Positions 1-9,380 of a stretch of 9,380 nt of DNA are shown here, in pieces. Where the stretch lies: IMG/VR virus record IMGVR_UViG_2563366903_000014. The stretch is one strand, 5' to 3'. The notes beneath the pieces were generated by a model. It saw nothing but the letters and a program-made list of their open reading frames with translations. It ran no database searches and had not been told where the DNA came from. The position numbers and the translations under genes were made by a program. Each line of letters opens with the position of its first letter. Position 1 is the first letter of the stretch. The DNA comes from a virus (Duplodnaviria > Heunggongvirae > Uroviricota > Caudoviricetes).

Positions 1-747
1 AATTGTGTCCTTCGTAGTAATTAAACATCAAGAAACCTTAACAACATCCAATAAAGATTATATTGTATTCAGATATGCAGTAGTATTATTTATTTTTATC
101 AATGTACAATTCCTGTAATCTTTCCTGCTATTTCCTTTCAAAATATTTCACAATAAAGTGATAGAACTAATACCCAACATCAGTTAAAAATATTCGCAAA
201 GTACTCCATCACTATCTACAACGCAACTCCATTTCAATATATTCTCTGTTAATCTCATTTTTGTATTCTGTTCAGATTGAATAAAACTCCCCATGATTTC
301 CCATGTTCAAATCAGGAAATACTGATGATCTGATTTCTTTAGATCAAATTTCTGAGATTACTTTATATTTATCTATCAAGCTGTATACCTTTATACCTGT
401 TATACCAGAGCAAAAAACAAATGAGCTACAACATAAAACCTGTTTTGCAATAAAGCTCACAAATTAAGCATATTTCCATATCTGATAGTCGTTACAAACA
501 AGTCTTTTCCAGCCGTTACTTCCAGCATTACCGTATGGCTGACATTTACGAGGCGGATTTGAGTTCACTGTCAGTTACGGGCTGTGTATTTGCGCGCGCC
601 CACTGTCTGGATCGGGGGACACGTTTATCCGGCGTTGCTCCCATGCTTCGGTCACCCTCCACATGTACGCCATCGCTACGCAGTCAAACTAACCAATTAC
701 TGCGGCAGGACTCTCACCTGCAAGACACTGAGCAGCTTTCGAACCGC

Positions 748-1188
748 TCAGAACGGGATATCGTCAGGGAACAGGTCATCGTGATTATTCTGCGGTGGAT
801 GTCCCCGTGATGAGGTCTGTGCCCCTGTGTTTTGTGGCTGGCCTGTGTGTTTTCTCTGACCTCCACCAGGGCGAACAGTACGGGCACTGATTACGCTGTC
901 GGCGATAACCTGCCACCCCTGCCGCGTCTCCCCGTTCTGTCCGGTCCACTGGCTTATCTGCATGTTACCCGCCACGCTGATAAGGTCGCCTTTCTGGTGC
1001 TTCGCCAGATGGTCGGCCTGTTTACCAAAGGCTGTTACGGCAAGCCATAGAGTCGCCTGTCCGTCATCTGCGTTATGGCACGGTACGGATACCGCCATTC
1101 TCGCCAGCGTCATGTTTGTACCCTTGCTGGTCTGTTTTACCTGCGGGTCGTCCACCAGCCGCCCGTAAGCTGCAATCTGTGCTGTCAT
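748..1188 (-). CDS. ssb: Single-stranded DNA-binding protein (short phage/plasmid-type SSB)
   Basis: 146 aa; OB-fold pattern resembling E. coli SSB (IAAYGRLVDDPQV...TLWLAVTAFGKQADHLAKHQKGDLISVAGNMQISQWTGQNGETRQGW); Gly/Gln/Pro-rich linker; C-terminus ends DDIPF, the canonical SSB acidic tip. ATG at 1186-1188 overlaps stop of upstream ORF (ATGA). Confidence 0.85.
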   Translation of the reverse strand: MTAQIAAYGRLVDDPQVKQTSKGTNMTLARMAVSVPCHNADDGQATLWLAVTAFGKQADHLAKHQKGDLISVAGNMQISQWTGQNGETRQGWQVIADSVISARTVRPGGGQRKHTGQPQNTGAQTSSRGHPPQNNHDDLFPDDIPF

Positions 1189-1921: not shown

Positions 1922-3742
1922 TTAATTTTTATCACCCTCATTTTTCACTGGTGCACATGACGGCAGCCAGTCCTCAGACTCATCCATCAGTATCACGTTT
2001 GATCGCACACCTTCTTTCGTTCTCTTTTTCATATACTCCCTGCCATATTCCGCCATTGCGCCTGGCATATCTGCACCGAAGCGCGTCAGTGTTACGGGCT
2101 TACTGAAACCGTGCGCCCTCATATACGAGAGATAGGCGTGATAGAGATAACGGCGCGGACTGAACGGAATAATCTCAGCATTACCGACTAACAGGCCGTC
2201 ACACATTACCGACGACATGAGATAGCCGCAGAAGTCCACCAGCGAATCCCCCTCACGCTTTATTGCAAGGGCTTCTTCTGATTTCTGCTGCTCATGTAAC
2301 AGGCGTCTGGCTTCGTCCTGGTCAGAAAAGCGCGTAAGCAGATGACGAATCACTACAGCAAGCTCACCCTCTATTTTTTCCGGCAGCATCGGATCGCGCT
2401 CGTTTTCCGGTACAACCTCCGAAAAATTGAATATCACACGACGACGCGAGATCCCCCCGCTGCGGTCACTGAATGACATGGCGCTGTTGTTAACCGCCAG
2501 CACTACCGCCGGAATACGCGTTGAGTATGGCGCTTTGTGTTTCGGGTCAATTGCCACCTTGTCACCGCCCGTAATGGCCTTTATTCCTGCTCCATCACCC
2601 GCGTAGCGGGTCATATCCGGCAGAATAATCAGTGAAAAGCCAACCACTAACGCGCGTTCCCTTGCATCCTCCAGTGCCTTCATGCTTGCCGATACCGTGT
2701 TGGCCTTACCCGCCAGCATGGTACAAATCTCCGCCATAACGCTTTTACCGCTTCCACCAGGACCAGTTACCTCAATGAATAACTGCCAGTCGTACCGGTT
2801 CGCCAGCACCATAAATAACGCTGCCAGTACGCGATCCGCCTTGCGGTCATTCTCTGCCACCGAACGGCGCAACCATTTCCAGAAATTCGGCGCATGTGTT
2901 GCCAGCGTTTCACCCTCTGCTGGTGGAGTGAACGGTAACTCACTGGCAATTAACAGCCAGTCATCTTTATCGTGTTCCCGAAAATCACCTGTACGGGTAT
3001 CAAATACCCCGTTGCTGAATCCAATCAGGTGACGGGCGGTATTACCCATTACGGGTAAACTTAACTTCATTGTGTCAACTGCCGATTTAATGGCGTTTTG
3101 TGAATAGCAGATATCTTCGTCAATGAAGATTTGCGCCATTGTGCGCTGTAGCTCTTTGTCCTGCACGGGGGACCATATAACCCCGTTGTAATAGTGAACT
3201 GTGTCAGAGTCAGGGTTTATTGCCAGTTCCCCTCCGTAATGAGCAAGAAGAACCCTGCCACGCTGGCTGGCCCCCATCTGGTTAAGTGCCAGTGACGAAT
3301 CATCACCCTGTCCCCGCGCTTTTTTCTTTACAGGCAGCTCAATAACCAGCCCGTCAGAAATGTTTTTGCGTTCAATATCCAGATAGTTACGCCAGTTCTG
3401 CCGCTCGTTGTGGTGCATTCCTTCAGGGTAGTAATCAGCATCCTGTATACCTGCGGCTGCCAGCTTCTGACCGATGCCTTTGACCATCATCTGATCGAGG
3501 TGTCCGGCCTTGTATATACGCGCTGATTTGCGCCCGTCGGGCACAATTTTCAGATTGCCAATATCCTTAAGTTGTTCATCAGAAAGCACGACTGGCGGAA
3601 CATCATCACCTGCAAGTCGTCCCTCCTGCTCCTGCCACTGTTTCGCGTGCGCCCACGCATCACTGCCAGCGAAAATAATCACTTCCGTATCGGCGTGTTT
3701 TTTCCCTCGCGGCTGTTTTTTTAAGTTCGGTGCGCTTTTCAT
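1922..3742 (-). CDS. DNA primase/helicase, P4 alpha-like (phage/plasmid primase with C-terminal P-loop NTPase domain)
   Basis: 606 aa; Walker A motif GPGGSGKS in the C-terminal half; N-terminal region primase-like; start ATG overlaps stop of upstream small ORF (ATGA at 3739-3742); iterons immediately downstream. Confidence 0.88.
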   Translation of the reverse strand: MKSAPNLKKQPRGKKHADTEVIIFAGSDAWAHAKQWQEQEGRLAGDDVPPVVLSDEQLKDIGNLKIVPDGRKSARIYKAGHLDQMMVKGIGQKLAAAGIQDADYYPEGMHHNERQNWRNYLDIERKNISDGLVIELPVKKKARGQGDDSSLALNQMGASQRGRVLLAHYGGELAINPDSDTVHYYNGVIWSPVQDKELQRTMAQIFIDEDICYSQNAIKSAVDTMKLSLPVMGNTARHLIGFSNGVFDTRTGDFREHDKDDWLLIASELPFTPPAEGETLATHAPNFWKWLRRSVAENDRKADRVLAALFMVLANRYDWQLFIEVTGPGGSGKSVMAEICTMLAGKANTVSASMKALEDARERALVVGFSLIILPDMTRYAGDGAGIKAITGGDKVAIDPKHKAPYSTRIPAVVLAVNNSAMSFSDRSGGISRRRVIFNFSEVVPENERDPMLPEKIEGELAVVIRHLLTRFSDQDEARRLLHEQQKSEEALAIKREGDSLVDFCGYLMSSVMCDGLLVGNAEIIPFSPRRYLYHAYLSYMRAHGFSKPVTLTRFGADMPGAMAEYGREYMKKRTKEGVRSNVILMDESEDWLPSCAPVKNEGDKN

Positions 3743-4032
3743 TTCTTACCTCTGCTGATCGTCTTCTTCATGGCCTTAACATGCGCCTTTGCTTTGTTGT
3801 TGCTGGTTGGGCTACGACGTGGTACGGCCTGCACCAGGGAAAAATCACGCCGGAACTGACAAACAGGCATCACGCAGTCATAGTCATACCCTTCACGGCG
3901 GTAGGTGATGCGCCGTTCCCTCATGCTGATAATCATCACGATGCCGCCGTACTTATCGCGGTAAATATCCCCGCGCATAAATTCGGGTTGAGTTTTGCCA
4001 CTGGCAGTTAAGCCAGTATTTTTTGATTTCAT
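3739..4032 (-). CDS. Hypothetical small basic protein (97 aa) immediately upstream of and coupled to primase
   Basis: AGGAG Shine-Dalgarno about 10 nt upstream of ATG at 4030-4032; stop overlaps primase start. Very basic C-terminus. Function unknown. Confidence 0.5.
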   Translation of the reverse strand: MKSKNTGLTASGKTQPEFMRGDIYRDKYGGIVMIISMRERRITYRREGYDYDCVMPVCQFRRDFSLVQAVPRRSPTSNNKAKAHVKAMKKTISRGKK

Positions 4033-4089
4033 TTAATTAATCTCCTGAAGGCGTCGTCTTAATCTTTATTTCCTGTTTATTTTTCTCCG

Positions 4090-4293
4090 TTATTGTTCAG
4101 CGCGTTTTTCTTCCTCCGTCATTAACCATACCGCCACATTTGCGGAAAGTTGTTTAATCAGTCCCGCAATAACAGAAAGGTCATGGTCGTCAATTTCTTC
4201 GTGGTTACGTTCTATCATGCGCTCAATCATGCGGCTGATTACTTCGACCTGCTGCGCTTTCAGTGATGCTTCTGCCAGTGTTATTTCCTGCAT
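4090..4293 (-). CDS. Hypothetical protein (67 aa), predicted helical, acidic
   Basis: ATG at 4291-4293 shares one nucleotide with stop TAA of upstream ORF (TAATG); GGGGTG SD-like sequence upstream. Confidence 0.45.
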   Translation of the reverse strand: MQEITLAEASLKAQQVEVISRMIERMIERNHEEIDDHDLSVIAGLIKQLSANVAVWLMTEEEKRAEQ

Positions 4294-4478
4294 TACTGCA
4301 CCCCATTTATTTCATGAACGGCGTGGATAATTACGCCGGATAAACCGGCTTTAGCTGATTTGTTAATTACTGTGCTGATTGCAGCCTGGACGTTTTCGGC
4401 CTTCACGTTCTGCGTGATGCCAACGGTATAGCCGCGATTATTAACAGCACGGGAAAAGACGCGGAAGGTTTTAAGCAT
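4293..4478 (-). CDS. Hypothetical protein (61 aa)
   Basis: Strong Shine-Dalgarno AGGAGGTGA 5 nt upstream of ATG at 4476-4478; first gene of the leftward operon ending in primase. Confidence 0.55.
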   Translation of the reverse strand: MLKTFRVFSRAVNNRGYTVGITQNVKAENVQAAISTVINKSAKAGLSGVIIHAVHEINGVQ

Positions 4479-5110
4479 GAGTCACCTCCTGACGGATACG
4501 GGCGACAAAAATCAGATGTGCGTGCGGCAGCTGCGCGCGTGCTTCGCGCTCAGTGGCAGCTGTAACGGTGAATATTGCAATGCTGCCTGTCAGGCACTGC
4601 ATAAAGCGCCAGACAAAGTAAGGGCGTGCAGATACAGCCATGTGAAAGGCACCTCTGACTTTGGGATTATACCCACCGCCCAAGAGGCCAATCTTGCTGG
4701 CGGTGGACTGTACGGAATTGGCCTTACTGGTGTTAGAGGAAACCAGCCTTCCCGAAGGAAGTTCCATACAGCCCACCATTGTTGAGGTGTGCGTGTGCGC
4801 CGATACAAAAAAAGACGCTGGCGCGTCGTGTATCGCCTCTAACTCCAGCGGGAGGCCAATCCCGATCCCCGTTTTATAAGGGATAGCCTCAGTATATGCC
4901 GCTTTTTTGCTTAAGTGGTCGGATGTGTTGCGAGAAAAGTTTGTGCGAAAAATACCTGCGTTTTCTTTGAAAGCACATAATAACATCACGTTATTTATGT
5001 TTATGCAGTGTGTCGCAAAGCGACCTGAATCATCACGCAAATTACAACCATAAAAAATACCTGCGCTGTGATATGAGGTACTACAGCGCACCGCTTTACG
5101 GGTACAGACA
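4479..5110. promoter_or_regulatory. Candidate divergent control region between leftward replication operon and rightward small-ORF unit (palindromes, direct repeats, hairpins)
   Basis: 13-bp palindrome TGCCTGTCAGGCA (4584-4596); hairpin CCACCGCC...GGCGGTGG (4673-4706); GGCCAAT motif three times (4686, 4854, and inverted at 4716); hairpin GACGC-tggc-GCGTC (4814-4827) preceded by A7; 13-nt direct repeat AAAAATACCTGCG (4948-4960 and 5053-5065). Specific -35/-10 hexamers could not be assigned with confidence. Confidence 0.4.
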
Positions 5111-5290
5111 ATGACCAACGAAGAATTACAGGCAATCGCATTATCCATACTTGAGCGCCAGCGCGAAAAAGCACGCCAGAAGCGAGAGTATTTGCTTAAT
5201 CCACCTCCTCTCACCAGACCAAAACGATTTGCGCTTGAAGCATTTCTGGATAAATGCCCTCGGCGGTTAATCTCGCCTAAAAACCGATAG
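5111..5290 (+). CDS. Small basic protein, paralog A (59 aa); unknown family
   Basis: ATG 5111, TAG 5288-5290; C-terminal KRFALEAFLDKCPRRLISPKNR is paralogous to the C-terminus of the next ORF; several nucleotide differences between the two copies are synonymous in this frame (gcg/gca, ctg/ctc, cct/cca, tta/cta, aac/aat, cga/cgc). Confidence 0.4.
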   Translation: MTNEELQAIALSILERQREKARQKREYLLNPPPLTRPKRFALEAFLDKCPRRLISPKNR

Positions 5291-5386
5291 CGATCCGCTT
5301 TTGCTTCTCCGACTCCATAAAGCGAATAAAAACCATCAGCGCCGTGGTGTGAGGTACTGCGTCGCTCAGCTGTACAGGAAATAAGT

Positions 5387-5665
5387 ATGGATTTATCACC
5401 AGACGATGAGAAATTTTTACGACAACTACAACACCAACTACTCATGGATGCCATTGTCGAGCAGCAAACAAAGAGCAGCCCGATAGATTCATCGCTGAAT
5501 AAAAAGGCCGCCTCCCGTTTTATTGAAAACAGGATAAGGCGCGGAAAAACATGTGACGACGAGTCAAAGGCATCGCATACAAGAGATAAAAAATTTGCAC
5601 TTGAAGAGTTTCTCAGGAAATACCCACGGCGGCTAAAAGCAACCAAAAATCGCCCGCCAGGCTGA
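5387..5665 (+). CDS. Small basic protein, paralog B (92 aa); unknown family
   Basis: AGGAAA SD 6 nt upstream of ATG 5387; C-terminal KKFALEEFLRKYPRRLKATKNR matches paralog A; conserved upstream leader motif GTG-TGAGGTACT shared with paralog A; intrinsic terminator downstream. Confidence 0.5.
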   Translation: MDLSPDDEKFLRQLQHQLLMDAIVEQQTKSSPIDSSLNKKAASRFIENRIRRGKTCDDESKASHTRDKKFALEEFLRKYPRRLKATKNRPPG

Positions 5666-5731
5666 TAGCATTGTCCACCAGCTACACTCATGGCATAGTT
5701 GGTGATGCGCTTGATTTCCTTTATCTCCACT

Positions 5732-5762
5732 GGCGACCCTTCCATGGTCGCCTTTGTTTTGC
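5732..5762 (+). terminator. Rho-independent terminator for the rightward small-ORF unit
   Basis: Perfect 7-bp GC-rich stem GGCGACC / GGTCGCC (5732-5738 / 5746-5752) with 7-nt loop, followed by TTTGTTTTG on the plus strand; sits between convergent genes. Confidence 0.55.
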
Positions 5763-5765
5763 CTG

Positions 5766-5978
5766 TCATTCCTGCATCATGCGGATATTCGCGCCGTACA
5801 GGGCCGCCAGCGCGATAATTTGATAAAACCTCCCCAAGTATTGCTTAACGTGTTTCATGCGCTCAGCGGCGAAATGGCTCACGATATGGCGCATGTAATC
5901 AGCATGGTTGATGTTCAGTAGTGCGAACTTATCCGCCGTGTCGATGTACCGGACGGCAGGTTTGAGGATGTCAGGCAT
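5766..5978 (-). CDS. Hypothetical protein (about 70 aa), last gene of the alpA-rha operon
   Basis: ATG at 5976-5978 lies 2 nt upstream of the rha stop codon (ATGCCTGA); alternative GTG start at 5984. Confidence 0.45.
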   Translation of the reverse strand: MPDILKPAVRYIDTADKFALLNINHADYMRHIVSHFAAERMKHVKQYLGRFYQIIALAALYGANIRMMQE

Positions 5979-6708
5979 GTTCACGTTCTCCCAGGCGACG
6001 GGCCAGCCAGCGTTGGGCTAATTCGGTGAGACGTTCTTTACGTTCTGGCGTTGGCATATCCATATCCAGTAGCGCACAGTTACGGCTTTCCAGATACGCG
6101 AGCAACGCCAGTTGATCAGCGGTTATATGGTCACGAACTTTTTTTGATGGGATGCCGTTTTTTTTGGCCCATACAGGCGGGTGCATCCCTAATACAAGGC
6201 GCGCAATGAAAGTACATTCGTTGTTATAAGCATGACCGTGTTGAGTGTCTCCAGTACGCTCTATGTATCCCTTCATGGCATCCCCCATAGAGCGCATCTC
6301 AGCTTTGGCCTCACATCTCTCTGCTATCCAGTTAGCCATGCGGTTAAACTGCGCAATGTATGCCTCTTTGAATGCAGCCGCTTTTTTTCCGGTAAATCCC
6401 ATTGTTAAAAACACGAAGCCGTCTTTGGTGACTTCGTAGGCTCTCAATACGCGCCCCTTATGCTCAAATTTAACCCGCCGAAAATTGCGGGTTAAAAATT
6501 CAGCAGAACAACACAGGTTTTCAATCCGGTTAACAACCTTATCGTGATCCTTTCTGAAAAATCGGGCGATAGCCTGTGAAGTGGTTACAGGCTCACCGCC
6601 AGAAGGAAACACTTCCGGCGCAGTGAGTGCATTTTTATTTATTCCGTCAGCAATAATCTCATTGCCGGAAATTACCGAAATAATTGCGGCGAAATCATAA
6701 TTACGCAT
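5971..6708 (-). CDS. rha: Rha-family phage regulatory protein (antirepressor-like)
   Basis: 245 aa; N-terminal region carries the Rha signature (VTTSQAIARFFRKDHDKVVNRIENL ... DGFVFLTMGFTGKKAAAFKEAYIAQFNRM); start overlaps the upstream gene by 8 nt. Confidence 0.82.
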   Translation of the reverse strand: MRNYDFAAIISVISGNEIIADGINKNALTAPEVFPSGGEPVTTSQAIARFFRKDHDKVVNRIENLCCSAEFLTRNFRRVKFEHKGRVLRAYEVTKDGFVFLTMGFTGKKAAAFKEAYIAQFNRMANWIAERCEAKAEMRSMGDAMKGYIERTGDTQHGHAYNNECTFIARLVLGMHPPVWAKKNGIPSKKVRDHITADQLALLAYLESRNCALLDMDMPTPERKERLTELAQRWLARRLGEREHA

Positions 6709-7216
6709 GATTCACCCCCAGAGACGGCGCTGACGTCATCAGGCTGGCGAACGTCTCCATGCGGCGAGCAACTTCCCGCACCGCTTCGGTCGGTGTCATG
6801 CCGTTCTGTATCGCCTCGTTAAAAGCCGATATCCCGATTTCTTGTACAACTGACAACAAATGAAAGCGGTGTTTTGTTTCGTCCTGCTTGAGGTGGCGCA
6901 TATGTTCTGGGTTACGACCGCGAACAATGCGTAACAAGTAATCATGTTGCATTTCATTCAGCATATAGCGCATTTCTGGGCGACCGCGCTTATGGCCTGA
7001 TTTCAGACTATAGCGAGGCAATGCTCCCAGATCGCGTAACTGCTGCTGATGTTTTTTGATCGTCGCGCAAAGACTTTCGTGTTGTATTCCTGCTCGCTCA
7101 GAAATAACGCGGGAATCAATACGCGACTCTGCTTTGTGGCGAATCAATATATCGTTCTGGTTGATTTCAGGCTGAACGAAGCCCTGCCCCTGTACGGGCA
7201 TATTCGGACGTTTCAT
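6701..7216 (-). CDS. Hypothetical protein (171 aa), possible helix-turn-helix DNA-binding protein
   Basis: AGGAG SD 7 nt upstream of ATG 7214-7216; segment ISERAGIQHESLCATIKKH has HTH character; overlaps rha start. Function not recognised. Confidence 0.6.
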   Translation of the reverse strand: MKRPNMPVQGQGFVQPEINQNDILIRHKAESRIDSRVISERAGIQHESLCATIKKHQQQLRDLGALPRYSLKSGHKRGRPEMRYMLNEMQHDYLLRIVRGRNPEHMRHLKQDETKHRFHLLSVVQEIGISAFNEAIQNGMTPTEAVREVARRMETFASLMTSAPSLGVNHA

Positions 7217-7280
7217 TGAAAACTCCTGCTATCGGATCAGGTTTAGTGCTGGGGGAGAATATCCCCCTCCCAAAAGATTA

Positions 7281-7484
7281 TTACGCGGCGTTGTTGCGAG
7301 AAGCATCAATACGCTGGTTAATCCATTCGTCGACTTCACTTTCAATAAAAGCCACGGAGCGGGGACCAATTTTTACCGGTTTAGGGAAGCGCCCCAGGCT
7401 GATCAGGCGATAAATCCATGCGCGACCGTAACCAGTACGGCGCATAACCTCAGAAAGACGGATGAATGAATTGTTATTAGCCAT
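7281..7484 (-). CDS. alpA: AlpA/Vis-family transcriptional regulator (prophage CP4-57 regulatory protein family)
   Basis: 67 aa; IRLSEVMRRTGYGRAWIYRLISLGRFPKPVKIGPRSVAFIESEVDEWINQRI resembles E. coli AlpA; AAGGAG SD 8 nt upstream of ATG 7482-7484. Confidence 0.85.
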   Translation of the reverse strand: MANNNSFIRLSEVMRRTGYGRAWIYRLISLGRFPKPVKIGPRSVAFIESEVDEWINQRIDASRNNAA

Positions 7485-8126: not shown

Positions 8127-9341
8127 TTATGCACATACACTAAACTTGCCGTGCACCACGTTTCCGCCCTGTTCCAGTGAGTCCATATAGTCGGCGTACC
8201 ACTGGAGCATCTCCCGCCGTCCGTCCAGATATTGCGCGTGATTGTATGTGCCACGGATCGAGTTTTTATCGACGTGCGCCAGCTGCGTTTCTATCCACGC
8301 GGAGTTATAACCCTGCTCATGCAAAATTGTACTCATGGTATGCCGGAACCCATGACCAGTAACGCGCCCAGCATAGCCAATACGACGAATAAGCACGTTC
8401 ATCGCCATTTCACTCATCGGTTTACTGTGCTGTATTCGACCAGGGAAAATAAACGGATACTGCCCCGTCATGTGTTTCAGTTGTTCCAGAATAGCAATCG
8501 CCTGTTCTGAAAGCGGCACGCAATGAGGACGGCGCATTTTCATTCGTTCTTTCGGCACTTCCCACAGACGATTATCAAAATCAATCTCCTGCCACTCTGC
8601 CTGCCGCAATTCACCCGGACGGAGTCCTGTAAGAATCAACAATCGCATACCCAGCTTGACGATCTGGCTTCCGGTGTACGTATTAAAAACGCGGAAAAAT
8701 TCCGGTAGCTCATCAACTTTCAGATACGCGTAATGCTCTTTTTTGTGTGGTGCAAATGCGCTTGCCAGATCAGGAGCGGGGTTATATTCAGCGCGTCCGG
8801 TAATTATTGCGTACCGAAACACTTCGCCACATCGCTGGCGAACCTTACGCAATTTTTCAGTTGCGCCACGGTCATTAAGACGGGATAGAACCGCGAGCAA
8901 TTCCATCGGCTTAATCTCTGCGATGGGCCTACCTCCAATGTACGGAAAAACGTCTTTTTCAAACGTCTCTATCATTTCCTCTGCATATGAGGGAGACCAT
9001 CGGTCCAGGCGTTTTTCATACCACTCACGGGCGATCACCTCAAAGGTGTTACCGCATTTGTTCGCCTGTTCTCGCTTTTGGGCCTTTCTGACCTCACTCG
9101 GATTAACTCCACCAGCGATAAGCCTTTTGGCTTCATCCCTTGCCGTCCTGGCATCAGAAAGGGACACCTCAGGATAGACACCCAGCGACAACATTTTGGG
9201 CTTGCCTGCAAACCTGTATCGCAATCGCCAGCCCTTCGAACCGTTCGGCTCAATGAGTAACGAAAGCCCGTTGCCGTCATTGAGTGTATAGGCTTTCTCT
9301 TTTGGCTTCGCGCGGCGGATAGCAAGGTCTGAAAGCAACAT
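8127..9341 (-). CDS. int: Tyrosine recombinase / P4-family integrase
   Basis: N-terminus MLLSDLAIRRAKPKEKAYTLNDGNGLSLLIEPNGSKGWRLRY matches the P4/CP4-57 integrase N-terminal pattern; C-terminal catalytic motifs HGFRHT and RGTYNHAQY. ORF is open to the window edge (alternative ATG at 9378-9380), so the true start may be 9341 or lie further upstream. Confidence 0.88.
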   Translation of the reverse strand: MLLSDLAIRRAKPKEKAYTLNDGNGLSLLIEPNGSKGWRLRYRFAGKPKMLSLGVYPEVSLSDARTARDEAKRLIAGGVNPSEVRKAQKREQANKCGNTFEVIAREWYEKRLDRWSPSYAEEMIETFEKDVFPYIGGRPIAEIKPMELLAVLSRLNDRGATEKLRKVRQRCGEVFRYAIITGRAEYNPAPDLASAFAPHKKEHYAYLKVDELPEFFRVFNTYTGSQIVKLGMRLLILTGLRPGELRQAEWQEIDFDNRLWEVPKERMKMRRPHCVPLSEQAIAILEQLKHMTGQYPFIFPGRIQHSKPMSEMAMNVLIRRIGYAGRVTGHGFRHTMSTILHEQGYNSAWIETQLAHVDKNSIRGTYNHAQYLDGRREMLQWYADYMDSLEQGGNVVHGKFSVCA

Positions 9342-9380
9342 GTGTATAGCCCCCAAAAAACGATTTTGTCCTATACGCAT

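Follow-up and report, generated by a model that had tools for sequence, protein, structure and literature searches.

The three small open reading frames stacked upstream of the replicase gene in the analysed window (the whole 9,380-nt stretch of viral DNA) are real genes of a phage-satellite island of E. coli and are conserved, and the 97-aa product of the last of them is, judging by its sequence, an orthologue of RgdR. The explanation that we consider reasonably probable is that all three are early-operon genes of an E. coli PICI, and that RgdR natively serves in the island replication or early programme. The finding is largely ordinary, as annotations of the genes exist in hundreds of E. coli genomes and a description of the RgdR family dates from 2012; the sole new point is the overlap of rgdR/DUF4222 genes with replication genes, the remainder being already known. 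The features of the stack are as follows.

4483..4490, minus strand: Shine-Dalgarno site AGGAGGTG of the 61-aa ORF, within the 3' end of the Icd-like ORF
4293..4478, minus strand: 61-aa ORF, basic (pI 10.6), phrog_3672, homologue of Sakai ECs_1578
4090..4293, minus strand: 67-aa ORF, acidic (pI 4.6), phrog_1478, homologue of Sakai ECs_1579
4033..4089, minus strand: spacer between the 67-aa and 97-aa ORFs, 57 nt, with the site AGGAGA at 4041-4046
3739..4032, minus strand: 97-aa ORF, RgdR family, DUF4222
1922..3742, minus strand: replicase, 606 aa, with a family-less N-terminal domain (~1-140) followed by D5_N, DUF5906 (SF3 helicase) and Pox_D5

The initial annotation had described three small ORFs stacked before the replicase gene with overlapping start and stop codons, and the coordinates, the strand and the junctions are confirmed. 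The Shine-Dalgarno site of the 61-aa ORF, AGGAGGTG, lies 4 nt before the ATG and is indeed strong, as is that of the 97-aa ORF; in 40 loci the former is kept as CAGG(A/G)(G/A)GT. The stop of the 61-aa ORF had been said to share a nucleotide with the next start, and this is the case in TAATG at 4291-4295, where one A is common to the TAA of the 61-aa ORF and the ATG of the 67-aa ORF; the same junction is found in 33 of the 40 loci with a 61-aa homologue. The 97-aa ORF is basic (pI 10.4) and overlaps the replicase start, again as described, with ATGA at 3739-3742 serving as its stop and as the start of the replicase. The 57-nt spacer is the sole gap in the chain of overlapping genes, and no minus-strand terminator-like site was found between 4478 and 1922, the spacer included. 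One more link, absent from the initial annotation, is provided by the Icd-like ORF, whose TAA stop (4471-4473) falls 8 nt into the 61-aa ORF. As the stops and starts overlap, ribosomes might be passed on from one ORF to the next: those leaving the Icd-like ORF could continue to the 61-aa and 67-aa ORFs, and those on the 97-aa ORF, to the replicase, so that the stack would be translationally coupled into the replicase gene.

The reality of the genes, their family membership, junctions and synteny, and the predicted folds are direct observations. Homologues of the three ORFs in the same order are present in many E. coli islands, including prophage Sp7 of E. coli O157 Sakai, and identical or near-identical proteins are encoded on hundreds of E. 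coli contigs. Conservation of length and frame in related islands had been proposed as a check on the genes, and the lengths are kept, with a median pairwise dN/dS of ~0.27 for each of the three. The reading of these ORFs as chance frames or annotation artefacts could be based on their short length (61–97 aa) and on two of them having no Pfam/NCBIfam family, but it is refuted by their conservation and has a practically negligible probability: the Shine-Dalgarno sites are strong and dN/dS is well under 1, length, order and junctions are kept down to 40–67% amino-acid identity, all three ORFs match PHROG families (1e-17 to 1e-25), and the orthologue of the 97-aa ORF has an experimental function.

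None of the three had a family recognised in the initial annotation, which proposed profile searches and structure prediction. These assign the 97-aa protein to Pfam DUF4222/RgdR, the 61-aa protein to phrog_3672 and the 67-aa protein to phrog_1478, and yield confident models for the 97-aa and 61-aa proteins. The match of the 97-aa protein to PF13973 (DUF4222) covers residues 16-68 and scores 84 bits against a cut-off of 27 (E 5e-24), compared to 82 bits for ECs1581 (RgdR), with which it shares 66 of 99 residues (67%) over the full length (E 7e-48, 2 gap positions). The protein, identical on 491 contigs, has a pI of 10.44, and its last 29 residues contain 10 K/R and zero D/E. In the AF2 model the core (residues 21-70, pLDDT ~90) forms a Tudor/SH3-like five-strand barrel (23-68), and a basic C-terminal helix spans residues 77-95. 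The RGD motif at R20-G21-D22 (in the context F18 M19 R20 G21 D22 I23) directly precedes the barrel; across the RgdR family its arginine varies, position 20 being occupied by R, C, N or P. No solved-structure relatives were found by sequence with the DUF4222 profile. A scan of one genome per species for long RgdR retrieved Shigella flexneri and E. albertii only, and thus gives no broad taxonomic leverage.

RgdR (ECs1581), encoded in OI-51/Sp7 of E. coli O157:H7, is a small DNA-binding activator of LEE1 and a repressor of motility (Flockhart et al., 2012, PMC3378721). When ecs1581 is deleted and complemented, type III secretion, adherence and motility change, sheep colonisation is lowered if the OI-51 island is deleted as a whole, the RGD tripeptide of ECs1581 is needed for T3SS activation and DNA binding, and the binding itself is non-specific (PMC3378721). 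LEE1/T3SS activation, motility repression and non-specific DNA binding have been reported for ECs1581 and C1493 only (PMC3378721). The 97-aa protein of the window would probably be a low-specificity DNA-binding co-factor of transcription or replication.

The position of rgdR is remarkably constant in relation to the replication gene. The gene content upstream varies between loci, but rgdR and then the replicase close the cluster in every case. The final codons of rgdR, AGA GGT AAG AAA TGA, provide the replicase gene with its Shine-Dalgarno site and its ATG, and both the position and the 4-nt overlap are the same in Sakai Sp7. The ATGA overlap of the rgdR stop and the replicase start is present in 83 of 86 loci, which span three unrelated replicase classes, D5/SF3, AAA_25 and DUF927, with an N-terminal domain of ~130 aa common to all. 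Moreover, short DUF4222 ORFs in lambdoid phages overlap the gene in the O position (Pfam Phg_2220_C) by 11–44 nt in 80 of 84 loci, these 84 loci representing one closely related lineage. The conserved overlap hints at a replication-linked role of RgdR. Since rgdR appears to be co-translated with the replicase almost everywhere, its native role would lie in the replication or early-gene programme of the island itself, with cross-talk accounting for the effects on host virulence genes. Conserved coupling to replication genes thus favours control of replication by RgdR. Still, such control would not be essential: an arabinose-inducible rep gene plus ori of EcCICFT073 is enough for plasmid replication, apparently without rgdR, and a natural in-frame deletion of 171 nt in rgdR (the L002 type) is common. 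In this allele the barrel is gone, and the frame, the Shine-Dalgarno site and ATGA are kept. The 40-aa barrel-deleted remnant seems to be present in about 100 complete E. coli genomes, as estimated from 84% coverage, and since such remnants seem widespread, RgdR is likely dispensable for island persistence.

The same data bear on the possibility that RgdR serves purely as an accessory regulator, or "moron", acting on host genes (LEE1, flagella, curli), its slot beside the replicase being merely convenient for expression. We regard this as possible, though on the doubtful side. It agrees with the sole experimentally supported function of RgdR (PMC3378721) and with the PICI literature, where rgdR, found in all analysed E. 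coli PICIs, is grouped with accessory or virulence genes (PMC6092414), as well as with replication from rep and ori without RgdR and the common barrel-deleted alleles. On the contrary, rgdR is also carried by the islands of strains that are commensal or LEE-negative (PMC6092414, PMC3378721). Furthermore, the 4-nt overlap persists in 83 of 86 loci despite swaps of the ATPase module among three unrelated classes, and DUF4222 overlaps a replication gene in lambdoid phages too. True morons are usually autonomous units at the ends of elements, whereas rgdR is embedded in the replication module.

A comparison with phage P4 raises another possibility. The initial annotation placed the 97-aa ORF in the slot of the P4 copy-number gene, and this is correct as far as position goes: cnr (ORF106, 6984-7304) is located directly upstream of alpha (4636-6969), as the 97-aa ORF is before the replicase. 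P4 ORF106 (Cnr) matches DUF5375 (PF17345) at 2.9e-63, while the profile search with the 97-aa ORF retrieves DUF4222 only, not DUF5375; BLASTP of the 97-aa ORF against P4 Cnr yields no alignment at E ≤ 100, and in tblastn of this ORF P4 is not matched. A homologous relationship between the 97-aa ORF and P4 Cnr, epsilon or ORF151 is hence ruled out by BLASTP, tblastn and Pfam, and, as Cnr belongs to DUF5375 and is unrelated to the 97-aa protein, the analogy with P4 is positional only.

The 97-aa protein might nevertheless be a functional analogue of Cnr, binding the replicase (perhaps its N-terminal domain) or the origin and tuning initiation or copy number after induction, a reading that we hold to be rather improbable. 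The shared slot and the non-specific DNA binding of RgdR are in line with it, and so are the strict co-translation across replicase classes that have only the N-terminal domain in common and the overlap of DUF4222 with phage replication initiator genes. Replication of PICIs without control is toxic (PMC6092414), so a replication brake would be useful. Against this stand the absence of any sequence relationship to Cnr/DUF5375, the sufficiency of rep and ori, and the tolerance of natural deletions; moreover, neighbouring genes may co-vary from linkage alone.

The replicase itself had been labelled a primase, and this label does not hold. Its D5_N/DUF5906/Pox_D5 part is homologous to residues 323-771 of P4 alpha, with no alignment beyond these, and its N-terminal 148 aa compared with P4 alpha residues 1-330 give E = 0.17. 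No Zn-ribbon or Toprim primase domain was found in the 606-aa replicase by Pfam profile search, whereas P4 alpha has both (Zn_Ribbon_Prim at 30-66 and Toprim_3 at 210-299). With no recognisable primase domain in the replicase, it may be asked how DNA synthesis is primed in these islands.

The region upstream of the stack, together with the two ends of the window, contains further elements of the island.

748-1188, minus strand: ssb; the window ends just past this gene
4471..4617, minus strand: 3' part of the Icd-like ORF, host cell division inhibitor domain, NF033153
4696..4783, minus strand: C4/CI-type antisense RNA gene, RF01695, 73.8 bits against a gathering score of 45
4808..4884, minus strand: isrK-like RNA element, RF01394, 52.1 bits against 50
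7281..7484, minus strand: alpA, PF05930, 2.4e-20
8127-9380, minus strand: integrase; the window ends inside int

The NF033153 match scores 48.3 bits against a cut-off of 25 and covers residues 385-427 of the 432-aa Icd-like ORF. The isrK-like element, with a terminator-like hairpin inside it (4814-4827), lies directly upstream of the C4 RNA; this pair is found in P4 in identical order, and the RF01695 element of the window corresponds to the CI RNA region of P4. With an isrK-like and C4/CI-like leader and an Icd-like ORF, the parallel with P4 at the level of the operon is closer than the initial annotation could tell. No C4 RNA was detected in Sakai Sp7, though its ORF stack is the same.

This arrangement could be taken to mean that the ORFs are mainly translated leaders, relaying control by the C4 RNA to the replicase via coupling and Rho polarity, with their products being secondary. 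The c4-icd-ant region of P1 is the model for C4 control relayed in this way. The overlaps run without a break between the Icd-like ORF and the 67-aa ORF, and again between the 97-aa ORF and the replicase; the C4 RNA and the Icd-like ORF are directly upstream, and the L002-type deletion destroys the fold but keeps the frame, the Shine-Dalgarno site and ATGA. Still, we find this reading unlikely, given purifying selection on the amino acids of all three ORFs, the confident folded models for two of them, and the activity of RgdR in trans; the chain is also interrupted after the 67-aa ORF, by 57 nt in which the 97-aa ORF has a Shine-Dalgarno site of its own, and Sakai Sp7 has the same stack and no detectable C4 RNA.

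The window has the layout of Gram-negative PICIs, with int, alpA and the replicase in one direction, and no phage structural or lysis genes were found in its regulatory and replication half. In the collection of complete genomes, the best E. coli genome covers 70% of the mosaic at 93.6% identity, and none contains the exact mosaic. In the explanation that we prefer, with RgdR acting in the island's own programme, the island would be of the kind of OI-51/Sp7, EcCICFT073 and EcCIMP1, and the proposed order is int, alpA, Rha-like genes, the isrK/C4 leader, the Icd-like ORF, the 61-aa, 67-aa and 97-aa ORFs, the replicase and ssb. The equivalent operon of EcCICFT073 is activated by AlpA (PMC6092414), and by homology with this island alpA is the probable activator of the rightward operon here; control of the operon would then be exerted by AlpA and the C4 RNA.

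Compared to rgdR, the two upstream genes are distributed more sparsely, the 61-aa gene being present in 13 and the 67-aa gene in 25 of 87 RgdR-anchored loci. They are optional cassette genes with a narrow distribution. The 61-aa ORF matches phrog_3672 (unknown function) at 1e-23 over positions 1-60/61 and is 61% identical to Sakai ECs_1578; its AF2 model has a beta-beta-alpha-beta fold (pLDDT 81), and an exhaustive search of 1.84 billion proteins yielded only 6 representative clusters, one of them being a spurious match to a short motif of a Cache-repeat protein. The 67-aa ORF matches phrog_1478 (unknown function) at 2.1e-17 over positions 1-62/63 and is 42% identical to Sakai ECs_1579; the identical protein is found on 649 contigs, annotated as "hypothetical protein", and its sequence suggests that it is helical. 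Profile searches gave no Pfam/NCBIfam family above cut-off for either ORF, informative fold matches were likewise absent, and the matches of the 67-aa ORF to TetR_C and YfcL (E 0.02–0.06, under cut-offs) were taken as noise. A defence or anti-defence identity was rejected for all three ORFs, as the PADLOC defence-protein models yield zero matches at E ≤ 0.1. Most likely, the 61-aa and 67-aa products would be small proteins that modulate host or helper functions through protein binding.

Taken jointly, these observations allow for a broader and tentative proposal, to which we give rather little weight as a whole. DUF4222/RgdR would not be a virulence moron; temperate phages and satellites would share it as a conserved accessory subunit, or as a regulator, of replication initiation. 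It would always be co-translated with the initiator (SF3 D5-type, AAA_25, DUF927 or Phg_2220_C O-like) and act via the ~130-aa N-terminal domain of the replicase or the origin. The LEE and motility effects would be collateral binding of DNA or RNA polymerase, and the 61-aa and 67-aa proteins would form a separate coupled basic/acidic module directed at a host or helper target. That a regulator known only as an activator of the LEE virulence island is fused by a 4-nt overlap to whichever initiator the island carries makes this a testable question. If RgdR is a co-factor of replication or early-gene expression, the virulence phenotype could be reread as cross-talk of satellite induction, and the "pri-rep" module of PICIs would gain a third component.

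Among known systems, the closest counterpart of the 97-aa protein is RgdR ECs1581, which has the same RGD at 20-22, a length of ~99 aa, a pI of ~10, and the same 4-nt overlap with a P4-alpha-like replicase; the protein of the window is 2 aa shorter, and its C-terminal tail has diverged. The island backbones also differ, the window having Rha, Ash and Icd genes with the C4 RNA leader, and Sakai, a capsid-forming island without detectable C4 RNA. The Gram-negative PICIs EcCICFT073, EcCIEDL933 and EcCIMP1 have the same unidirectional order of int, alpA, small ORFs, rgdR, pri-rep and ssb (PMC6092414, PMC11773190). The assignment of the window to PICIs is based on its regulatory and replication genes, att sites and the packaging module being outside the window; relatives of the window island have ProQ/FinO and PerC genes downstream.

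P4 resembles the window in having a small protein gene before an alpha-type replicase and an operon opening with an isrK/C4(CI) RNA leader. The differences are that cnr and alpha are separated by a 14-nt gap, whereas rgdR and the replicase overlap, and that the Zn-ribbon and Toprim domains of P4 alpha are missing from the replicase of the window. A C4-family RNA followed by an Icd-like ORF coupled to downstream genes is also found in the immI region of P1/P7 (c4-icd-ant) and in the P4 CI region; in P1/P7 immI the downstream gene is the antirepressor, and in the window, the 61-aa and 67-aa ORFs, rgdR and the replicase. At the level of structure, five-strand SH3/Tudor barrels of a size similar to that predicted for RgdR are present in the Tudor-like RNA-polymerase-interacting domains of UvrD/PcrA (C-terminal) and CarD/CdnL (N-terminal), and in CarD the barrel is paired with a basic DNA-binding part, as in the predicted fold of RgdR.

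The genes of the window are carried on its minus strand, as seen by listing the ORFs and reading the sequence directly, and three small ones are stacked upstream of the replicase gene of this E. coli phage-satellite island in the following order:

4293..4478, minus strand: 61-aa ORF
4090..4293, minus strand: 67-aa ORF
3739..4032, minus strand: 97-aa ORF, basic
1922..3742, minus strand: 606-aa replicase gene

A Shine–Dalgarno site, AGGAGGTG, is located 4 nt upstream of the ATG of the 61-aa ORF, whose TAA has one A in common with the ATG of the 67-aa ORF (TAATG junction). The 67-aa and 97-aa ORFs are 57 nt apart, the spacer containing the site AGGAGA, and the TGA of the 97-aa ORF overlaps the replicase ATG (ATGA junction). 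Sequence reading confirms all details of the stack reported in the initial annotation. One more ORF, missed there, stops 8 nt inside the 61-aa gene, and hence the stack begins one gene earlier.

All three small ORFs are genes. The 97-aa and 67-aa proteins are found with identical sequences on 491 and 649 public contigs, respectively, all from E. coli, and the 61-aa protein is found at 98% identity. Homologues annotated in RefSeq follow the same order, and the same stack is present in prophage Sp7 (OI-51) of E. coli O157:H7 Sakai, where ECs_1578 (61 aa), ECs_1579 (63 aa) and ECs_1581 (99 aa) are 61, 42, and 67% identical to the 61-, 67-, and 97-aa ORFs, respectively, with a 4-nt overlap of ECs_1581 and the “primase” gene. 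The possibility that ORF lengths are not conserved in related islands is not borne out: across 87 loci anchored on RgdR (the ECs_1581 protein) and 27 for which the 61-aa ORF served as anchor, the lengths of all three are conserved, with median pairwise dN/dS of approximately 0.27 for each.

The initial annotation recognized no family for any of these ORFs, and this does not hold. The 97-aa ORF matches Pfam DUF4222 (84 bits, cut-off 27), a family equated in the literature with RgdR (ECs1581). RgdR (99 aa, pI 10) is a product of OI-51, a cryptic P4-like element, and acts as an activator of type III secretion and the LEE1 promoter and as a repressor of motility; it binds DNA without specificity and requires an RGD motif at residues 20–22 (PMC3378721); according to Fillol-Salom et al. 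(PMC6092414), all analyzed E. coli PICIs encode it. As the window protein has R20-G21-D22, these data together with the DUF4222 match identify it, by sequence, as a diverged allele of the described regulator. Its AlphaFold model (pLDDT approximately 90 over residues 21–70) consists of an SH3/Tudor-like barrel of five strands and, C-terminal to it, a basic helix, and the last 29 residues of the protein contain ten K/R and no D/E; the predicted SH3/Tudor likeness is a lead rather than an assignment.

The 61-aa and 67-aa ORFs match phrog_3672 and phrog_1478, respectively, both PHROG families of unknown function, and have no family match in Pfam, NCBIfam or PADLOC. The proposed profile searches and structure prediction have yielded family matches for all three proteins, uninformative about function in these two cases, and two folded models, both predicted with good confidence. 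The 61-aa family is tiny, with six representative clusters among 1.84 billion proteins; its predicted model, a beta-beta-alpha-beta unit, has no informative structural neighbors. The two proteins have pI values of 10.6 (61 aa, basic) and 4.6 (67 aa, acidic). We can only say that both are optional, narrowly distributed, and presumably co-translated.

In the cassette zone, which extends from the regulatory genes to the replicase, homologues of the 61-aa and 67-aa ORFs are present in 13 and 25 of the 87 RgdR-anchored loci, respectively, and other small ORFs (69 and 80 aa) are variably present. The genes keep one order throughout, with rgdR and then the replicase invariably closing the cluster. 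In every locus with the 61-aa gene, the stop of the preceding ORF falls 8 nt inside it; TAATG between the 61-aa gene and the next one is kept in 33 of 40 loci, and the rgdR–replicase ATGA in 83 of 86. The RgdR C-terminus, RGKK, is nearly invariant, and its codons with the stop (AGA GGT AAG AAA TGA) double as the replicase Shine–Dalgarno site and start codon.

Only residues 323–771 of P4 alpha are alignable with the window replicase, in which a domain search and this alignment find no Zn-ribbon or Toprim domains of alpha, so that “primase” is a courtesy name. They are replaced by an N-terminal domain of no known family (residues 1–140, ~3323–3742, minus strand). Across loci, proteins encoded downstream of rgdR belong to three unrelated ATPase classes:

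D5_N/DUF5906/Pox_D5: 582–607 aa
AAA_25: 466–468 aa
DUF927: 710–714 aa

The same N-terminal domain (~130 aa) is common to all three, being 39–100% identical to that of the window. A replicase without a recognized primase domain raises the question of how these islands prime DNA synthesis.

Lambdoid phages mEp390, ST147-VIM1phi7.2, vB_EcoS-733R5, and KpF5 have DUF4222 ORFs of 59–70 aa between cII and the gene in the lambda O position (Pfam Phg_2220_C, “DNA replication protein O” in two records), overlapping the start of the latter by 11–44 nt. This overlap is observed in 80 of 84 viral contigs, all from one closely related lineage. In vB_EcoS-733R5 the annotation lacks the DUF4222 ORF and has a “hypothetical protein” on the opposite strand in its place. 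The one new, and testable, observation is that DUF4222 genes are, almost without exception, translationally coupled to genes for replication initiators from several unrelated classes. The analysis shows that the small genes are real, that their families can be identified, and that their junctions and synteny are conserved; apart from the coupling, what was found is essentially known, as the genes are annotated and one family is published.

A natural allele, seen in NZ_CP075665.1 and similar records, has a 171-nt in-frame rgdR deletion between short ATCAGCA repeats, which takes out the greater part of the barrel and basic helix and keeps the reading frame, Shine–Dalgarno site and ATGA; the remnant is a 40-aa ORF (5135–5257 of locus L002, from NZ_CP075665.1). 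Coverage figures suggest that this arrangement is present in approximately 100 of 5,426 complete genomes. As the allele is common, the RgdR protein is dispensable for island persistence, with the coupled leader retained. An essential role of RgdR is further disfavored by the fact that rep+ori alone replicates a plasmid. Translation of the stack would proceed as a coupled chain, in an operon activated by AlpA and gated by C4 RNA, with RgdR produced together with the replicase and acting as a low-specificity DNA-binding co-factor. Most likely, RgdR natively serves the early or replication program of the island itself, the effects on LEE and motility being cross-talk.

Two RNA genes are identified by Rfam upstream of the small ORFs:

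4808–4884: isrK-like element
4696–4783: C4/CI-type antisense RNA

Both are overlaid by the Phage_ASH match (Pfam, residues 292–378, ~4636–4896) of a 432-aa ORF at 4471–5769 (minus strand), only the last ~50 residues of which are Icd-like; in relatives, RefSeq has an “ash family” pseudogene and separate Icd-like CDSs here. This ORF probably does not encode a single genuine protein, and the “Ash” family may partly represent translated RNA genes, cf. the old P4 “cI gene product.” Upstream of isrK/C4, there is a degenerate direct repeat (5050–5102 and 5326–5378; 53 nt, 74% identity, spacing 276), and plus-strand ORFs 5111–5290 and 5387–5665 both contain the motif FALE(A/E)FL(D/R)K(C/Y)PRRL; two related loci (L001 and L002) have two C4 copies ~480 nt apart. 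The repeat, common motif and paired copies suggest a duplicated, decaying immunity-RNA module. Downstream of alpA, two adjacent antirepressor-like Rha-family genes (6701–7216 and 5971–6708, minus strand, 8-nt overlap) are followed by a 72-aa ORF (5766–5984).

At the other end, just downstream of ssb, Rfam group-II-D1D4-4 (RF02003) matches 570–723 (minus strand) over the full model length (67.1 bits, gathering score 49). No reverse-transcriptase ORF is visible on the minus strand in 1–740, and the best E. coli relatives cease matching below ~880; the site may be an intron fragment or insertion boundary. In a related island, a sok antitoxin RNA of the hok/sok type I toxin–antitoxin system (RF01794, 114 bits) is located at the contig edge (L008, 543–717).

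The interpretation in the initial annotation, which likened the position of the 97-aa ORF to that of the P4 copy-number regulator, is partly supported. In P4, cnr (ORF106) indeed lies directly upstream of alpha; its product belongs to Pfam DUF5375 and has no sequence similarity to the 97-aa ORF, which rules out the latter as a Cnr relative and leaves a positional parallel only. The reported “antirepressor, Ash, primase” core of EcCIMP1 resembles the Rha-pair layout of the window. The operon-level parallel with P4 is real: the isrK-like and C4/CI-type RNAs, followed in the window by the Icd-like ORF, have the same order and orientation in both elements.
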